Shown here: positions 49,009 to 57,690 of the stretch, piece after piece
Layout: every line of letters starts with the position of its first letter
Numbering within the stretch: position 1 is the first letter of the stretch
Source: a phage
Direction: 5' to 3' (one strand)
Assembly: GCA_024683775.1 (NCBI GenBank)
Contig: GCA_024683775.1_4106.1
Length of the DNA: 64,000 bases
Notes under the pieces: generated by a model
Told to the model about the DNA's origin: nothing
The model's database searches: none
The model's input: the letters and a program-made list of their open reading frames with translations, nothing else
Position numbers and translations under genes: made by a program

Positions 49009-49582
49009 AGAAATAGAAAGTAAAATTAAGTACTTTAAAGATATTAAAAAACTTTGGGAAAAGTATAAAATTGATTATCAATTCCAAGATGATGATACTG
49101 TTCAAAACATTGATATTAATATTCGTGTAAAGTTCAAGAATGGCAATTATGGCGAAGTTAAATTGAATGCTATTGGTATATTCCTTAAGGATTATGATGG
49201 TTCTTCACTCGCTCAATTCGATTTCACACCTGATCCTGATGATATGTTATTGAGTGAAGTCAATGCATATGACCTTGAGATGTTTAATGGTAAACCTTTA
49301 CTATTCCGCTTATCAGATGAATGGGATGAGATTTACTACACATACAAAGATGGTGTGATTCGAGACGCAAATGATGAAGTAGTAAATGATATGGAAGAAC
49401 GTCTATTTCAAGAATCATGTGTGTCATCGGAGTCATATACATATCAATATCTACTTGACATGTTCGATTTGTATAGTAAAATAGATTCAGAAATGAGTAC
49501 ATTGGGTATTCATTATCTTACAATCAACGACTTTGCACAACTTGAAACAGCGGTTAAAGCCCTTGTCAAAGTACTGAAATAG
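48998..49582 (+). CDS. family B protein (194 aa)
   Basis: Motif EERLFQESCVSS. Confidence 0.65.
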   Translation: MNFKEIESKIKYFKDIKKLWEKYKIDYQFQDDDTVQNIDINIRVKFKNGNYGEVKLNAIGIFLKDYDGSSLAQFDFTPDPDDMLLSEVNAYDLEMFNGKPLLFRLSDEWDEIYYTYKDGVIRDANDEVVNDMEERLFQESCVSSESYTYQYLLDMFDLYSKIDSEMSTLGIHYLTINDFAQLETAVKALVKVLK

Positions 49583-49591
49583 GAATGAATA

Positions 49592-50005
49592 ATGAAACTG
49601 TATCATGCGAGTACTGTAAAAATTGATAACTTTTATATCCCGTATGGTGGCCTTCATATGGGTGGCAAACACAGTGCTTTAGAAGCTGCATTACGCAAGC
49701 TGAGAAGCCCACTGAACGTTGTTGACGCTGATACAGTATACTTACATACCTTAGAAGTTGATGTTGATAACGTGCTTCTGTGGACGGATATGGGCAGTGA
49801 CGACGAATGGCGTGGAGTGATTGAGTACTGCGAAATTAACGGCTATGATGCAGTTCAGTACAAAAACGATTACGAACCAGATACAGTTCCTAGCTATATG
49901 ATTTGGGATACGTCTAAGGTTCGCATTGTTGAAGTTGATGCTATGCACATGGATGACGCAGAAATGATCATCGAAGATTTCCTTGATGAATATGAAGGTG
50001 TATAA
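49592..50005 (+). CDS. hypothetical acidic protein (137 aa), compositionally distinct
   Basis: ORF; SD TAGGAATGAATA upstream; visibly higher GC than neighbours; no family motif. Confidence 0.65.
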   Translation: MKLYHASTVKIDNFYIPYGGLHMGGKHSALEAALRKLRSPLNVVDADTVYLHTLEVDVDNVLLWTDMGSDDEWRGVIEYCEINGYDAVQYKNDYEPDTVPSYMIWDTSKVRIVEVDAMHMDDAEMIIEDFLDEYEGV

Positions 50006-54546: not shown

Positions 54547-55395
54547 ATGAAACTTTATCTAATCGTTGACTACAGTAAGGGTTATTATGACTACGCAGAA
54601 GAATCTGAAGGGTATTGCTCGTCTACTAATGTCAATGTACGCACCAGTAGTACACATGAGCATGAATCTATTACAAACCTAAAAGATTTCATCGCATATC
54701 GAGCATTTGAAAAGAATTTCTGTCGTAGTAGATATTCGAAGTTTGAGTACCCGTTAATTGATGTTCCTGATGAATTGATGTTCCAGTTAATGCTAACTGG
54801 AGTTCAAGATTATGATTACATCGCGTACAATCACATTACTAAGAAAATTTATATCGGTACGTCAACACATGACATTTCTATGTATGCATCATGCCCGGAT
54901 GATCGAATGAATGATAGAAAATCATACTATAGTGGATCAGTTGGTTCAAATGATTCATTAAATGAAAATTTATTCTTTGAGTACGAGTTTGATAATCATC
55001 GAGGGAAAAAAGACCGAGAAGATTATTGTACTGAAATTGATAGTACCAATGGATATGAAGAAGTGAAAGAAGCGATAATGCCATATATCCTTGACAAGTA
55101 CTACAAAGATTTTCAGTACTGTAGTAATTTTCTAATCCGAAATTCTATCATAATCGGTCGTCAAAGTACTGCATTCTCTAAGTACTACAATGATTCCCCT
55201 GTTGCTGAAAATGAAAACTGTAATATTCTCTCAATCCCACGTGAAGATATGGTATTCATGTTCACATCTTTCATTGAAGATGATGAGTTGTATGTAAAAA
55301 ACAAGCACAGGTTCATGCCAAGTAAGATTGAGGTTATGAGAAGCTTAAGTGCAGATATCTTAACGAATTTCACTGAAAAAACAGAATACAACTGA
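54547..55395 (+). CDS. hypothetical protein (282 aa)
   Basis: Long ORF; SD CTGGAGATA upstream; contains a family B-like motif DELMFQLMLTGV. Confidence 0.65.
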   Translation: MKLYLIVDYSKGYYDYAEESEGYCSSTNVNVRTSSTHEHESITNLKDFIAYRAFEKNFCRSRYSKFEYPLIDVPDELMFQLMLTGVQDYDYIAYNHITKKIYIGTSTHDISMYASCPDDRMNDRKSYYSGSVGSNDSLNENLFFEYEFDNHRGKKDREDYCTEIDSTNGYEEVKEAIMPYILDKYYKDFQYCSNFLIRNSIIIGRQSTAFSKYYNDSPVAENENCNILSIPREDMVFMFTSFIEDDELYVKNKHRFMPSKIEVMRSLSADILTNFTEKTEYN

Positions 55396-55425
55396 GACAT
55401 ACCATAAGTTTATGATATAATGTAA

Positions 55426-55456
55426 GGTGACAGCAGAATATGTTGTCACCTTTTTT
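55426..55456 (+). terminator. rho-independent terminator
   Basis: Hairpin GGTGACA...TGTCACC followed by TTTTTT. Confidence 0.7.
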
Positions 55457-55986
55457 AATCCTGAAAGGTTCCATATGGAAATGATTAAAGCCTAATCCAC
55501 TCGAAAAGTAGAGGGTAGATGAGTAGTCCTTTCAGTACGAACAGCAAATGAAACCCGTTAGATGATGGCATAGTTTGAACCACTCACGGCAATGCGGCTG
55601 TATAAAGAACTCCAATAGGATAAAGAGAGTTCCTCGATAGACATATAAGGATCGCACCTTACCAATTATCTAAGGGAGATTTCATGAGAAATTTGCGGTC
55701 GTAATTTATACAATATAGTTGCGTCCAAAATTCGTGAAATCAAATACAAGTACTGGTCATATGGTATTTGTATTATGTGTCGGGATGTTTAAGACCGACG
55801 ACCGTTGCTACAAGAACCGCGATAGAGAGAAACAGAGCAACCCGCTTTCGCCTCGTAAGAGAATTCGTGATATGAACTATGTGAAGGCCACCAGCGTCAA
55901 ACTTTTTGTTCTTTCCCCTGCGGGGGGATGAAATATGCTCAAGCAAACCCCGTCAATATTAATTAAAACAAATCATAGTACTTTCG

Positions 55987-56015
55987 TTGAATTAGACATG
56001 CGAAGCGTGTATAAT
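55987..56015 (+). promoter_or_regulatory. sigma70-like promoter (TTGAAT-17-TATAAT)
   Basis: Hexamers read directly upstream of CDS 56074. Confidence 0.55.
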
Positions 56016-56073
56016 TCGACTGGTGTTGATGAAGTCAACGCCATGTACAGTCATTGATGTTTCCATAGGAATA

Positions 56074-56619
56074 ATGATGTCATTTATTAAAAAATCTAAA
56101 AGCGTCACTTATAAAACACTAGAATTTGTTGATTCAGACAATCAGAACCAAGACCAAGAGAATTTTACTGGTTTTGTTGTGATTAAAGAAAAGGGATGTA
56201 TTTCGTACATCAAAGAGTTGCAGTGCGGTTTTGAATTAACTTCCATTAAGTTATTTCCAACCAAGAAGCCTACAATTCTTAAAGCTCGTTATGGGAACTA
56301 CTACGAAGAGCGTTATAGTAATAATCTAATCAGTGCGAAAGCACATATCGTCAATGGAGAACTAGAAGGAGAATATAGAAAATTCAACCCACAAGGAAAA
56401 TGTGTTTGGGTTAAATACTTCAATTCAGGAAATGATGTAACATCAGAAATTATTGAGTTTTTAGGTTTAACATGTACCCTTGAAACTCTTCATGATTACA
56501 AATTTAATACTGAAGAAGAGTTTAATCTGATGATGCGTTATGGATCACATTTTAAATTTTTATATGAATACAACATTGACAGTAGTACTTTTGATGACAT
56601 AGTACTTAACTGTCTATAA
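56074..56619 (+). CDS. hypothetical protein (181 aa)
   Basis: ORF; SD ATAGGAATA upstream; trimmed from track ORF 56023. Confidence 0.6.
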   Translation: MMSFIKKSKSVTYKTLEFVDSDNQNQDQENFTGFVVIKEKGCISYIKELQCGFELTSIKLFPTKKPTILKARYGNYYEERYSNNLISAKAHIVNGELEGEYRKFNPQGKCVWVKYFNSGNDVTSEIIEFLGLTCTLETLHDYKFNTEEEFNLMMRYGSHFKFLYEYNIDSSTFDDIVLNCL

Positions 56620-56635
56620 TCAAAGGAAATTATGT

Positions 56636-57160
56636 ATGTCGAAGAAGGATGCTTCGAAGAAAAAACAATCAGTACATTTCAGTACTGGAAAAGATAACTG
56701 GACTACTCCAAAGGATTTCTTTGAAGATTTGGATGAACTCTGGGAATTTACACTAGATGCAGCGTGTGTCAAAGAAACTGCATTGTGTGATAAGTTCTTT
56801 ACACCAGAAGACAATTCACTTGAACAGGACTGGGGAAACAATATCGTGTGGCTCAACCCACCGTACAGTGATTTGAAAACGTGGTTATCTAAGGCAGTTG
56901 ATGCATATAACAAAGGTGCTACAGTACTGATTCTCGTACCATCAAGAACTGATACTATAGCCTTTCAGGATTATGCTGCGAAAGTTTGTGATTGTATTTG
57001 TTTTATAAAAGGTCGCTTAAAGTTCGGTATCCCTGAAGAACCAGATAAAAAGACGGACAGTGCACCATTCCCTAGTTGTTTAATAGTACTGGATAAGTAT
57101 TTGACTCCAGCTAAAATCAACTATCTTAAATCTATTGGTCAGGTGATGAAGAACATATGA
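56636..57160 (+). CDS. DNA N6-adenine methyltransferase, phage Dam family (174 aa)
   Basis: Motifs WTTPKDFF, FTLDAAC and NPPY in the arrangement typical of the small phage Dam family; SD AAAGGAAA upstream. Confidence 0.75.
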   Translation: MSKKDASKKKQSVHFSTGKDNWTTPKDFFEDLDELWEFTLDAACVKETALCDKFFTPEDNSLEQDWGNNIVWLNPPYSDLKTWLSKAVDAYNKGATVLILVPSRTDTIAFQDYAAKVCDCICFIKGRLKFGIPEEPDKKTDSAPFPSCLIVLDKYLTPAKINYLKSIGQVMKNI

Positions 57161-57690
57161 AAGAAACATGTATACTATCATTCATGAGATGTAACCCAAT
57201 ACATCACGGACATGGCTTAGTGTTTGAAAAAGCTCAAGCACTACAAGAACAGTACAATGCTGATTTGAAAATATTCCTTAGTACCAGTACTGATGCCGTA
57301 AAAAATCCATTACCTCCTGAACTGAAAATGTACTATACAGAAGGATTTTACCCATCTGTACAAGAAAATATCTATACAGAAGATAATCTGTTTGATATAA
57401 TGAGAGAACTGGATGGAAAGTACTTAGATGTTCTTTTCATATGTGGTTCAGACAGACTTGAACCATTCCAAAAAACGCTTGACACGTACAATGGGAAGTT
57501 ATATAATTTTTGTTCAATCAAGGCAGTTCAAGCTGGAATTGACCGAAATGTAAGTCGCTACAGTTCCACACAGATGCGTGAGTTTGCCAAGAATGAAGAT
57601 TTTAATAGCTTCAGTACTTTTCTACCTGGTAATGATGATGCACTGAAAACTAAACTATTTGAAGATGTAATAAAATACATGAGGAAATAA
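57157..57690 (+). CDS. HxGH-motif nucleotidyltransferase, NMN/NaMN adenylyltransferase-like (177 aa)
   Basis: N-terminal CNPIHHGH (nucleotidyltransferase HxGH) and C-terminal SSTQMR (ISSTxxR-like); ATGA overlap with the methyltransferase gene. Confidence 0.55.
   Translation: MKETCILSFMRCNPIHHGHGLVFEKAQALQEQYNADLKIFLSTSTDAVKNPLPPELKMYYTEGFYPSVQENIYTEDNLFDIMRELDGKYLDVLFICGSDRLEPFQKTLDTYNGKLYNFCSIKAVQAGIDRNVSRYSSTQMREFAKNEDFNSFSTFLPGNDDALKTKLFEDVIKYMRK

Follow-up and report, generated by a model that had tools for sequence, protein, structure and literature searches.

Large and intricately folded RNAs of unknown function are rare in bacteria and phages. The main examples are GOLLD, ROOL (named for its rumen origin), OLE, and raiA, each of which opened new RNA biology, the latest being RNA-only nanocages. 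ColE1 RNA II is a structure-dependent pre-primer of about 550 nt, in which a G-rich segment pairs to a C-run of the template, and T4 oriF and oriG are origins consisting of a promoter plus an unwinding element, several of which are dispersed over one genome. ROOL and GOLLD are both borne by phages or prophages, contain multiple pseudoknots, and have neither a known protein partner nor a known function; GOLLD members are often longer than 800 nt and often lie near tRNAs or contain them (PMC12286853). In PA5oct, a relative of the RaK2/121Q clade, four ORF-free regions of 236 to 619 nt are transcribed, and two of these four RNA-seq-defined ncRNAs are found at 2 to 5% of phage reads (PMC7318152).

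Here we analyzed a gap between genes (positions 55396 to 56073) in the window, which is the whole 64-kb stretch of phage DNA under study. The proposal that the gap holds a structured noncoding RNA, which the initial annotation made alongside that of a decayed gene, is strongly supported by conservation across phage genera without the flanks, by compensatory changes, and by validation on held-out sequences. As far as sequence comparison can tell, this RNA of ~500 to 540 nt (~540 nt in the window copy, ~55428 to 55962, plus strand) resembles GOLLD and ROOL in kind and is unrelated to them in sequence. Like ROOL (RF03087), it occurs on phages and integrated elements, belongs to a size range of ~0.5 to 0.6 kb, has many helices and several pseudoknots, and lacks an associated protein gene (PMC12286853). 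Unlike ROOL, it has Enterobacteria and their jumbo phages as hosts, there are three to five diverged paralogs per genome, tRNA genes are absent from the 64-kb window, and the model does not match. With GOLLD (RF01998) it shares the character of a large ornate phage or prophage RNA whose 3' domain is strongly conserved and whose 5' part varies more, but its length is different and the GOLLD model gives no match. To our knowledge, GOLLD is not known as a multiparalog family within one genome. Two hallmarks of the large ornate RNAs are thus found here, namely, a length of several hundred nucleotides with many covarying helices and pseudoknots, and a location on phages or integrated elements without a linked protein gene. 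Frequent adjacency to tRNA islands was not found: ARAGORN predicts no tRNA or tmRNA gene in the window, so that the element itself is not one either, and in phage G17 the nearest tRNA cluster lies ~12 kb from the closest copy.

The Rfam/Infernal scan that had initially been proposed as a check gave no match to Rfam 15 at gathering thresholds in the whole window and, in permissive mode, noise only (E ≥ 4.8) between 55300 and 56200. The family is absent from Rfam 15, so the candidate RNA is new to Rfam. No Rfam family recurred over nine loci with diverged paralogs, and the covariance models of ROOL, GOLLD, OLE, raiA, and HEARO gave no match, permissive thresholds included. Group I and group II introns were rejected, as there was no match at E values up to 10 and the element lies between genes, its flanks being unrelated from one paralog to the next. 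We found no annotation of the element in sequence records and no paper describing the family; literature searches with its invariant sequence strings returned only primer coincidences, and no transcriptome for any phage of the RaK2-like clade was found in the literature. The PA5oct ncRNAs that we compared (ncRNA001, ncRNA002, and ncRNA004) showed no link to the family with nhmmer --max or the covariance model and no invariant motif, so that these three ncRNAs of the distant relative are not homologous. The 3' end of ncRNA004 has a vague resemblance only.

The gap and the ends of the predicted transcript

The gap had been described as an ORF-free and GC-richer island between a terminator and a promoter, and this description holds. 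The ORF upstream stops at 55395, and a real gene (180 amino acids, PHROG 16210) begins again only at 56074 or 56077; between them there are only short ORFs, the longest being a TTG-initiated ORF of 70 amino acids at 55719 to 55931. The GC content of 55426 to 55965 is 0.409 versus 0.343 for the whole window, an enrichment that is real yet modest (94th percentile among 540-nt windows, where the maximum in the stretch is 0.463). The promoter at the far end is sigma70-like (TTGAAT-17-TATAAT, 55987 to 56015, plus strand), lies outside the RNA, and serves the 180-amino-acid gene. The minus-strand Chi that had been noticed (CCACCAGC) is present at 55888; it is incidental to the family because just 5 of 43 members carry it.

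The terminator at the near end is likewise real as a sequence, with a hairpin (55424 to 55452) followed by a U-run, and the authors of the G17 genome also annotated it as a terminator. What the initial annotation missed is a strong extended −10 promoter upstream of this "terminator." It consists of a −35-like GAGACA (55394 to 55399), a 16-nt spacer with a TG, and TATAAT at 55416 to 55421 (GAGACA-16-TGATATAAT, plus strand, 55394 to 55421) and scores 10/12 plus TG in a consensus scan; the predicted transcription start lies near 55428. A homologous promoter (TGAAAC or TGrGAC, ~17 nt, TGnTATAAT) is found upstream of ~40 of 43 members and also at the bacterial island copies. The TGAAAC promoter had no other match in the window, but the idea that it is specific for the RNA turned out to be wrong for Asteriusvirus, as a relaxed pattern yields ~19 matches in TH47. 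The terminator-like element, SL0 (55424 to 55458, plus strand), is a 12-bp 5' stem-loop followed by the U-run. It is located downstream of the RNA's own −10 box and therefore falls within the element's transcription unit. SL0 probably stops transcription arriving from the upstream gene, and a hairpin with a U-run just past the predicted start could also terminate many of the element's transcripts. In most copies a 5' hairpin, itself variable, occupies this place, and the U-run is present in some and absent in others.

At the 3' side, a first YCGUCAR motif (CAGCGUCAAA) is followed by the U-rich CUUUUUGUUCUUU (55892 to 55914, plus strand). In about half of the family this position is occupied by a canonical intrinsic terminator (a hairpin plus U7-8), which lies 5' of the conserved P16 and tail; the window copy has no hairpin there. 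Since the window copy has no terminator ahead of the next gene, its transcript may run on into the 180-amino-acid gene. P16 (UUUCCCC-UGC-GGGGGGAUGAAA) and the conserved tail CAAACCCCGUCAAUAUUAA, which contains the second YCGUCAR motif, together span 55912 to 55962 (plus strand). The hairpin CCCCTGCGGGGGG that had been noticed initially lies within 55912 to 55933 and corresponds to P16. The G-run of P16 is invariant, and its C strand changes exclusively from C to U, yielding G.U pairs. This indicates pairing at the RNA level without double changes, because all C-strand variation retains a G.U pair. The tail is kept in all members, even where a terminator precedes it. Covariation revealed neither a closing helix that joins the 5' and 3' ends nor a partner strand for the two YCGUCAR motifs.

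Helices and pseudoknots of the window copy

The fold comprises at least 14 helices, and three pseudoknots are backed by covariation: one between the leader and the P2 loop (PK1), one between the P11 loop and a downstream strand (PK2), and one of the H type in the 3' core (PK3). The helices are joined by long invariant single-stranded junctions, and there are ~100 invariant positions, mostly unpaired. All features described below are on the plus strand. The 5' strand of PK1, CUGAAAGG (55461 to 55468), pairs with the P2 loop (55528 to 55535) in an 8-bp run that is ≥90% canonical in 42 sequences, with double-sided changes at four positions (e.g., CUGAUUGA/UCAAUCAG). Next to it lies P0 (55469 to 55480), a predicted hairpin (UUCC-AUAU-GGAA) of variable sequence whose position is conserved in all leader alignments. 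P1 (55492 to 55518) is a three-part helix (a/b/c) with the conserved cap loop GAAAAGUA; six of its eight pairs change on both sides, and 88.6% are paired. P2 (GUA/UAC, 55523 to 55538) holds the 3' strand of PK1 in its 10-nt loop and is 100% paired, with the variants UA, AU, and CG. P3 (55541-45/55597-601) delimits the region 55541 to 55601 and encloses the invariant strands GAAACCCG and CGGCAAUGCGGC, P4 (55555-58/55586-89), and the tentative, alignment-limited P5 (55566-68/55580-82). Both P3, with four of five pairs covarying, and P4 are 100% paired; P5 is replaced by a long insertion in some paralog groups. The GAACTC...GAGTTC hairpin, which was also part of the initial annotation, is helix P6 of the conserved structure (GAACUC/GAGUUC, 55607 to 55632); all six pairs covary, with three to four pair types per position and 94.4% paired.

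The central junction (55636 to 55700) contains the invariant GAUAGACAUAUAAGG, the invariant UAAGGGAG at 55671 to 55678, and the hairpin P8' (55646-50/55657-61). The helix scored in this junction (helix 6) is 84.8% paired and has three covarying pairs. P9 (55679 to 55692) is a local hairpin restricted to the ortholog group of the window copy. GCGGUC (55695 to 55700) probably pairs with the P8' loop to form P7, a possible fourth pseudoknot; the variants GAUACUA/UAGUAUC, GAUGCAU/AUGCAUC, UCGCAC/GUGCGA, and GCCAAA/UUUGGC point to it, with a modest statistic. The central-junction pairing CCUUA/UAAGG was ruled out by 11 C.A mismatches, and UAAGG/CCUUA is preferred. The K-module (55703 to 55732) is a predicted hairpin, AAUUU(A/G)UAC - loop AAUAUAGUUGC - GUCCAAAAUU. 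It is conserved, but its insertion place in the secondary structure varies by paralog group: other groups have it in the tip of P15, and island copies have it at both places. P11 (55743 to 55774) is a 12-bp hairpin with 11 covarying pairs (91.1% paired), and its conserved loop (55756 to 55762) is the 5' strand of PK2. In P12 (GUCGG/CCGAC, 55779 to 55799), the two outer pairs were scored and both covary, the inner pairs being alignment limited. The pseudoknotted 3' core (55800 to 55877) contains the invariant GACCGUUGC, P13 (55818-22/55865-69), P14 (55825-29/55845-49), P15 (55852-54/55859-61), the 3' strand of PK2 (55870 to 55876), and PK3 (55804-08/55837-41), which crosses P13 and P14. The helices of this core (8 and 10 to 13) are 96.8 to 100% paired, and 20 of their 25 pairs covary.

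A model of 74 pairs in 14 helices, including two pseudoknots, was scored on 42 distinct sequences; PK1, the third pseudoknot, was evaluated apart from it. In this model, 95.3% of the pairs are canonical, versus 75.6% in shuffles (0/500 as high) and 38 to 45% with slid partners, and 55 of the 74 pairs change on both sides. The number of compensatory cells was 534, versus 149 in shuffles and 39 to 78 with slid partners. Curation of the structure relied on MAFFT alignments built from sequence, a concern that is mitigated by the held-out set of 16 sequences, in which 95.1% of the pairs formed, as did 184 of 184 pairs of PK2 and PK3. G.U cells outnumber A.C cells about fivefold (137 versus 26), and the plus strand is therefore the RNA strand. 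The 3' core is the part that is still conserved in RaK2, and a covariance model of this domain recovers the RaK2 and island copies at 63 to 84 bits. Single-sequence thermodynamics are uninformative, as the folding energy is unremarkable (z = −1.8).

Phage paralogs and island copies

About 90 instances were collected (~50 on viral contigs, 36 in metagenomes or genomes, and 4 in TH47), a lower bound because the strict two-block pattern of the genome scan undercounts. The family is carried by 70 jumbo-phage records, and each of the RaK2-like jumbo phages examined has three to five diverged paralogs. TH47, a near-identical genome, has four copies on one strand, 56 to 116 kb apart; within the 64-kb window there is no second copy. 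Comparison with the same locus in related phages, another check suggested at the outset, shows that the gap is conserved across phage genera and the flanks are not: the RNA can be aligned between genera at 65 to 76% identity, and the flanks are unalignable. From the sequences it is shown that the paralogs diverged anciently and are arranged in ortholog groups. These groups span CBB, GAP32, Serratia phage BF, and Yersinia phage fHe-Yen9-04, and paralogs of the same genome are at most ~70% identical. In E. coli, Citrobacter, and Serratia, small integrative chromosomal islands carry rare single copies, and an Enterobacteriaceae metagenome-assembled genome has one more.

The neighboring genes differ between paralogs, and the island copies have still other neighbors. 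In G17 and TH47, one copy is antisense to both adjoining genes, and one copy per Asteriusvirus genome is in this situation, without a downstream gene. No protein partner is encoded beside the RNA in every context, and no protein is common to islands and phages. The family adds a large RNA from cultivable phages of E. coli, Salmonella, Erwinia, and Yersinia, which are phage-therapy candidates. As these phages are already in laboratories, genetics on the RNA is possible at once. Four to five conserved paralogs per genome, a module with a shifting insertion point, and a home in mobile islands are unusual for this class of RNA and provide handles on its function.

Possible roles of the RNA

We consider it probable that ~55428 to 55962 (plus strand) is the gene for an undescribed large folded ncRNA that is transcribed independently by the host RNA polymerase and acts in trans as a particle. 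The copy antisense to both of its neighbors in G17 and TH47 supports transcription as an independent unit, presumably by the host enzyme. By analogy, the RNA would be a stable folded particle, RNA only or assembled with host or phage proteins; the conserved junctions and loops may serve as a surface for binding or catalysis or as an interface for assembly, and the island copies may be captured phage genes. Our best guess for the role is that of a stable folded RNA or RNP that acts in trans, comparable to ROOL and GOLLD. More speculatively, and here we are doubtful, it might represent a new class among the large functional RNAs, as a ribozyme or as an RNA machine that assembles itself, and its four to five paralogs would then be nonredundant subunits or specificity variants needed in infection. 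Hijacking of the phage by satellite-like mimicry, or interference with it by a decoy in a defense island, might in that case be why islands captured a copy.

It is unlikely that the element is a replication origin whose structured transcript forms a persistent RNA-DNA hybrid downstream, around the G-run hairpin and the tail, and yields a leading-strand primer on processing, which would let islands replicate with their copy, perhaps via a helper phage. Like ColE1 RNA II and the T4 origin transcripts, the RNA is promoter driven, is ~550 nt long, has a fold that matters and a G-rich element near its 3' end, and occurs in dispersed copies. The four same-strand copies per genome, 56 to 116 kb apart, with a strong promoter at each, the length close to that of RNA II, and the presence in small mobile islands, where no obvious replication initiator was seen, all fit such a pre-primer, and conservation past the canonical terminator into the invariant G-run and tail suits an element acting at the DNA or hybrid level. 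However, the structure is far more elaborate and more conserved than in these systems, and no known pre-primer needs three to four pseudoknots, peripheral modules that transpose, and invariant junctions of such length. Half of the copies, again unlike these systems, have a terminator ahead of the G-run, which would defeat priming at the putative hybrid site. Cumulative GC skew has no inflection at the locus, neither iterons nor an antisense regulator like RNA I were seen, and the evenness of copy spacing is only weakly nonrandom (estimated P of ~0.05). A cis-acting leader, for example, a giant attenuator of the riboswitch or T-box type or a processive antiterminator similar to put, that controls terminator read-through into the downstream genes is quite improbable. 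Many copies do have the order promoter, structured RNA, intrinsic terminator, and same-strand genes, the window copy's transcript is not stopped before the 180-amino-acid gene, and in one paralog group the first YCGUCAR motif lies within the terminator stem. Against this, the downstream genes are unrelated across paralogs, and as a rule a separate sigma70-like promoter lies between the RNA and their start codon, the antisense copy of each Asteriusvirus genome has no downstream gene, and the island copies have different neighbors again. An alternative terminator/antiterminator pairing was not found, and neither was a match to a riboswitch or leader family.

The compact, pseudoknot-rich fold with ~100 mostly unpaired invariant positions would also suit a new ribozyme that processes itself, ligates, or acts on other RNA, with the invariant junctions as its active site. 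Processing could account for the ambiguous 3' end, and the peripheral module shifts its insertion point, as peripheral elements of group I and group II introns and RNase P likewise do. Nevertheless, we regard a catalytic role as a slim prospect, because there is no similarity to a ribozyme family even at E values up to 10, because exon-like flanks or a conserved cleavage-site context were not found, and because the noncatalytic large ornate RNAs ROOL, GOLLD, and OLE bear the same hallmarks (PMC12286853). Very improbable is a protein gene, be it decayed or unconventional, or a repeat that acts at the DNA level (for recombination, packaging, or protein binding) without an RNA function. The element is indeed a dispersed repeat, several GenBank records place one to five "hypothetical proteins" over the region, and a 57-amino-acid minus-strand ORF has a weak PHROG match (E = 0.0017). 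This was the lone match of the gap ORFs in Pfam and PHROG, and none gave a credible family. The frame of the 70-amino-acid ORF is broken by a 1-nt indel in relatives that are 99.5% identical, and the median stop-free stretch in family members is shuffle-like (73 codons versus 64 in shuffles). The frameshift, these ORF lengths, and the absence of a homologous protein family rule out a protein-coding gene or pseudogene, and with it the decayed gene of the initial annotation. Substitutions in the helices are compensatory, and G.U is tolerated five times more than A.C; selection therefore acts on the single-stranded plus-strand transcript and not on duplex DNA or a reading frame. The weak PHROG match is most simply explained by spurious annotations. 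In dozens of GenBank phage records these loci are left blank or filled with such spurious "hypothetical proteins"; a covariance model for this family would set the annotations right.

The gap and its coding potential

The locus lies in a fragment of a jumbo phage of the Asteriusvirus type that BLAST matches at 99% identity to the Escherichia phages Turkey3, EC.P1, and TH47, with PBECO4, 121Q, and G17 as further relatives. As the initial annotation stated, there is no credible open reading frame (ORF) in the interval from 55395, where a 282-aa gene ends, to 56074 or 56077, where a 180-aa gene with a promoter of its own begins. The other features it listed for the gap are also found: both quoted hairpins, a minus-strand Chi at 55888, and the downstream promoter (55987-56015). 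The GC enrichment is real but modest (0.409 versus 0.343 for the window, 94th percentile). Beyond the 180-aa gene, the annotation of the G17 orthologues gives a phage N6-adenine methyltransferase (56636-57160) and a cytidylyltransferase-like gene (57157-57690), and the arrangement as a whole (282-aa gene, RNA, gene, methylase) has its syntenic counterpart in RaK2 ORF445 to ORF447.

The initial annotation left a choice between a structured noncoding RNA and a decayed gene. The first turned out to be right, as shown by a covariation-backed model, by held-out sequences, and by a family that crosses genera. The second did not survive: a 1-nt indel breaks the frame of the 70-aa ORF in TH47, G17, and 121Q, which are 97.7 to 99.5% identical, and the stop-free stretches of family members resemble those of shuffled sequence. 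The ORFs in the gap matched no Pfam or PHROG family except for one weak hit (E = 0.0017) of a minus-strand 57-aa ORF to PHROG 37483. This hit most likely reflects spurious "hypothetical proteins" placed over the RNA in some records. One to five of these are annotated there in several genomes (e.g., PV611058, OR699282, PP886230, and the Salmonella SD-series).

The proposed Rfam scan was run and returned no known family: Rfam 15 at gathering thresholds gave no match in the whole window, permissive mode gave only noise on the locus, and nine loci with diverged paralogs showed no recurrent subthreshold family. ARAGORN found nothing. The phage records and both RefSeq Escherichia coli carriers lack an RNA annotation of the element, and full-text literature searches covering the phages, the invariant stretches, and RNAs of the GOLLD/ROOL type found no description of it.

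Copies in jumbo phages and bacterial islands

BLAST of the region against 50,697 phage records gave matches in about 70 jumbo phages of Escherichia, Salmonella, Klebsiella, Erwinia, Serratia, Yersinia, Cronobacter, Pectobacterium, and Xanthomonas, at 4 to 5 places per genome. Comparison of the same locus in related phages, another suggested check, showed that conservation across genera is confined to some 550 nt in the centre, and the flanks do not align. A motif search of IMG/VR, extended by iterated nhmmer, yielded about 50 instances, including 43 distinct full-length sequences (pairwise identity, mean 65%, minimum 53%), and all the IMG/VR instances are on jumbo-phage contigs or pieces thereof. 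RaK2 has a more diverged orthologue at the syntenic position between ORF445 and ORF446, the latter followed by dam, and G17 has diverged copies in other unannotated gaps, two of which we read directly. No second copy was found within the 64-kb window. The complete TH47 genome carries four, all on one strand, at 49.4, 146.0, 261.9, and 345.5 kb (49384-49880, 146030-146528, 261938-262438, and 345477-346032; loci L190 to L197), the first being the window copy. They are spaced 56 to 116 kb apart round the 352-kb genome, an evenness that four random points would reach with roughly 5% chance by our own estimate. In G17 the known copies, at about 65, 176, and 311 kb, are co-oriented too, and the second G17 copy (L003:15681-16654, G17 65689-66654) lies directly 3' of the gene for a phage RpoD-like sigma factor and the terminator of that gene.

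Each orthologue group includes CBB, GAP32, Serratia phage BF, fHe-Yen9-04, and metagenomic genomes, and paralogues in the same genome are at most about 70% identical. On this comparison, the duplications predate the divergence of these phage genera. The fact that all paralogues have been retained since then argues for nonredundant functions.

Only 3 of 185,579 species genomes matched a strict two-block pattern, as did 33 contigs from metagenomes; every match is a true member. In Citrobacter amalonaticus (L154:1845-4135, NZ_JBALIF010000001.1) and a Serratia sp. (L155:3257-5920, NZ_JBNDIN010000009.1), the RNA is directly 3' of the gene for a large serine recombinase, where housekeeping genes meet an inserted element. 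In an Enterobacteriaceae metagenome-assembled genome (L153:6445-7830), the corresponding side shows no recombinase ORF. In this genome and in Citrobacter, a CI/LexA-like S24 repressor follows just past the RNA, and five metagenome loci (L185, L161, L164, L158, and L156) have the same island-type context. The Citrobacter and Enterobacteriaceae contigs (619,944 and 212,681 bp) carry ordinary chromosomal flanks (hofB and ppdD; thiD and thiM), so these are genuine chromosomal insertions and not jumbo-phage DNA contaminating the assemblies. Among 5,426 complete E. coli genomes, two have the RNA, in a 10.6-kb island adjoining ffs (in strain EEC_W5, L189:9974-20318, NZ_CM130020.1 241200-251544, with the unannotated RNA at L189 14001-14560). 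This island has a tyrosine integrase interrupted by an IS3, together with a candidate defence system (PADLOC PDC-M45: DuOB, DUF488, and mSLOG/DUF4326). Its 118-aa secreted-looking protein is 73% identical to a Citrobacter island counterpart. Island copies keep the full cassette of promoter, leader, core, terminator, G-run hairpin, and tail. The E. coli copy is 80 to 82% identical to one particular paralogue of phages BF and fHe-Yen9-04 and thus nests inside the phage diversity. No protein common to the islands and the phage loci was found.

The predicted fold

An alignment of 42 distinct members supports a curated model with 14 helices and 74 base pairs; two of the helices are pseudoknots. In this model 95.3% of the cells are paired, versus 75.6% in column shuffles (0 of 500 reached the observed value) and 38 to 45% when the 3' partner was slid by 1 to 3 columns. 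Pairs that change on both sides number 55 of 74 (42.5 in shuffles, 17 to 22 when slid), and compensatory cells number 534 (149 and 39 to 78, respectively). In pseudoknot PK2 (99% paired, 6 of 7 pairs covarying), 55870-76 is the partner of the conserved loop (55756-62) that caps the long hairpin P11, and PK3 (55804-08 with 55837-41, 100% paired) crosses helices P13 and P14. A third pseudoknot, PK1, emerged once the leader was added to the analysis; it joins CUGAAAGG (55461-68) to the P2 loop CCUUUCAG (55528-35), with double-sided changes at 4 of 8 positions. P7, between the P8' loop and 55695-700, is probably a fourth, with clear compensatory variants and a modest statistic.

Sixteen metagenomic, island, RaK2, and TH47 sequences were kept out of model building; their identity to any training sequence was always below 95% and in many cases no more than 67 to 73%. 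They form 95.1% of the pairs and 184 of 184 PK2 and PK3 pairs, versus 35 to 44% in slid controls. A covariance model of the 3' core recovers the RaK2 and island copies at 63 to 84 bits. As G.U cells far outnumber A.C cells (137 versus 26), the folded molecule is the plus-strand transcript. About 100 alignment positions are invariant, mostly within junctions, among them the stretches GAAACCCG, CGGCAAUGCGGC, GAUAGACAUAUAAGG, UAAGGGAG, GACCGUUG, AACCCGC, and GGGGGGAUG. A hairpin module, AAUUUGUAC-AAUAUAGUUGC-GUCCAAAUU (55703-55732), follows the UAAGGGAG junction in most paralogues, occurs in the P15 tip in other paralogue groups, and is present at both places in island copies. Peripheral elements of large folded RNAs shift position in this way.

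Transcription signals and possible function

About 40 of 43 copies have a conserved upstream promoter, with the form TGAAAC, about 17 nt, TGnTATAAT in most genera and the bacterial islands and TGrGACA, about 14 nt, TGnTATAAT in Asteriusvirus; the window copy has GAGACA-16-TGATATAAT (55394-55421). TH47 contains about 19 matches to the relaxed motif TG(A/G)(A/G)ACA, about 14 nt, TGnTA(T/C)AAT, nearly all of them on one strand, so the motif belongs to a general class of phage promoters, probably a temporal one, rather than to the RNA alone. The Citrobacter island copy has two tandem TGAAAC-N17-TGGTATAAT promoters about 65 nt apart 5' of the RNA (L154:3415-3512). What had been read as the terminator bounding the gap is indeed a plus-strand hairpin (55424-55452) with a U-run, to 55458, but it lies downstream of the RNA's own -10. 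It probably ends transcription from the upstream gene and doubles as the RNA's 5' hairpin; other copies have a hairpin at the same place with or without the U-run. The core is followed by a YCGUCAR motif and, in about half of the copies, by a textbook terminator (A-tract, hairpin, U7-8), beyond which the invariant G-run hairpin P16 (55912-55933 in the window) and a conserved tail bearing another YCGUCAR are still present. At this place the window copy shows just a U-rich stretch, and no terminator follows up to the 180-aa gene. In one paralogue group (L104:1985-2075, L116, L106, L115, L034, and L030), the tail is followed by a conserved module made of an inverted repeat (gattttcttgc..gcgaagc..aagaaaatcc) fused to TTGACT-N17-TAnnAT and then a gene (ATGGGTAC...); this looks like a regulated promoter common to several genera.

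We are nearly certain that the locus is a structured RNA gene. Comparative analysis shows a predicted RNA that is independently promoted and strand specific, has a compact fold with three covariation-supported pseudoknots, and is kept as several paralogues linked to no protein gene. In each Asteriusvirus genome, one copy runs antisense to both neighbouring genes and must be its own transcription unit. The RNA may work in trans as a stable folded particle, either RNA only or protein bound, a proposal to which we give close to an even chance. Taken together, the near certainty about the gene and the more tentative view of the particle leave a structured RNA gene acting as a trans particle as the best overall explanation, and one that we moderately favour. 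ROOL and GOLLD would be the same kind of entity: they reside on phages and prophages, contain multiple pseudoknots, have no partner gene and no known function, and were recently shown to form nanocages (PMC12286853).

A preprimer akin to ColE1 RNA II or the T4 ori would account for the dispersed, co-oriented copies and for conservation past the terminator, but it leaves unexplained both the ornate fold and a terminator ahead of the putative hybrid site, and we consider it unlikely. Slightly more doubtful is a cis-acting leader or antiterminator, which is contradicted by downstream genes that are unrelated or absent. A new ribozyme would fit all observations without having positive support, and we rate it just as low. 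A coding or DNA-level element is the least credible reading, and very improbable.

The RNA belongs to what appears to be a hitherto unreported family of large ornate RNAs, found in enterobacterial jumbo phages and mobile islands. The carrier phages are cultivable, and the finding goes far beyond a local curiosity. In the distant relative PA5oct, four noncoding RNAs have been defined by RNA-seq (PMC7318152). The three that we compared, ncRNA001, ncRNA002, and ncRNA004 (L100:764-999, L100:14452-14902, and L101:617-1235), are not homologous to the family, and PA5oct may carry different large RNAs of its own. The 3' end of ncRNA004, a C-rich/G-rich hairpin followed by CCCGAATAT, bears a vague likeness to P16 and the tail.
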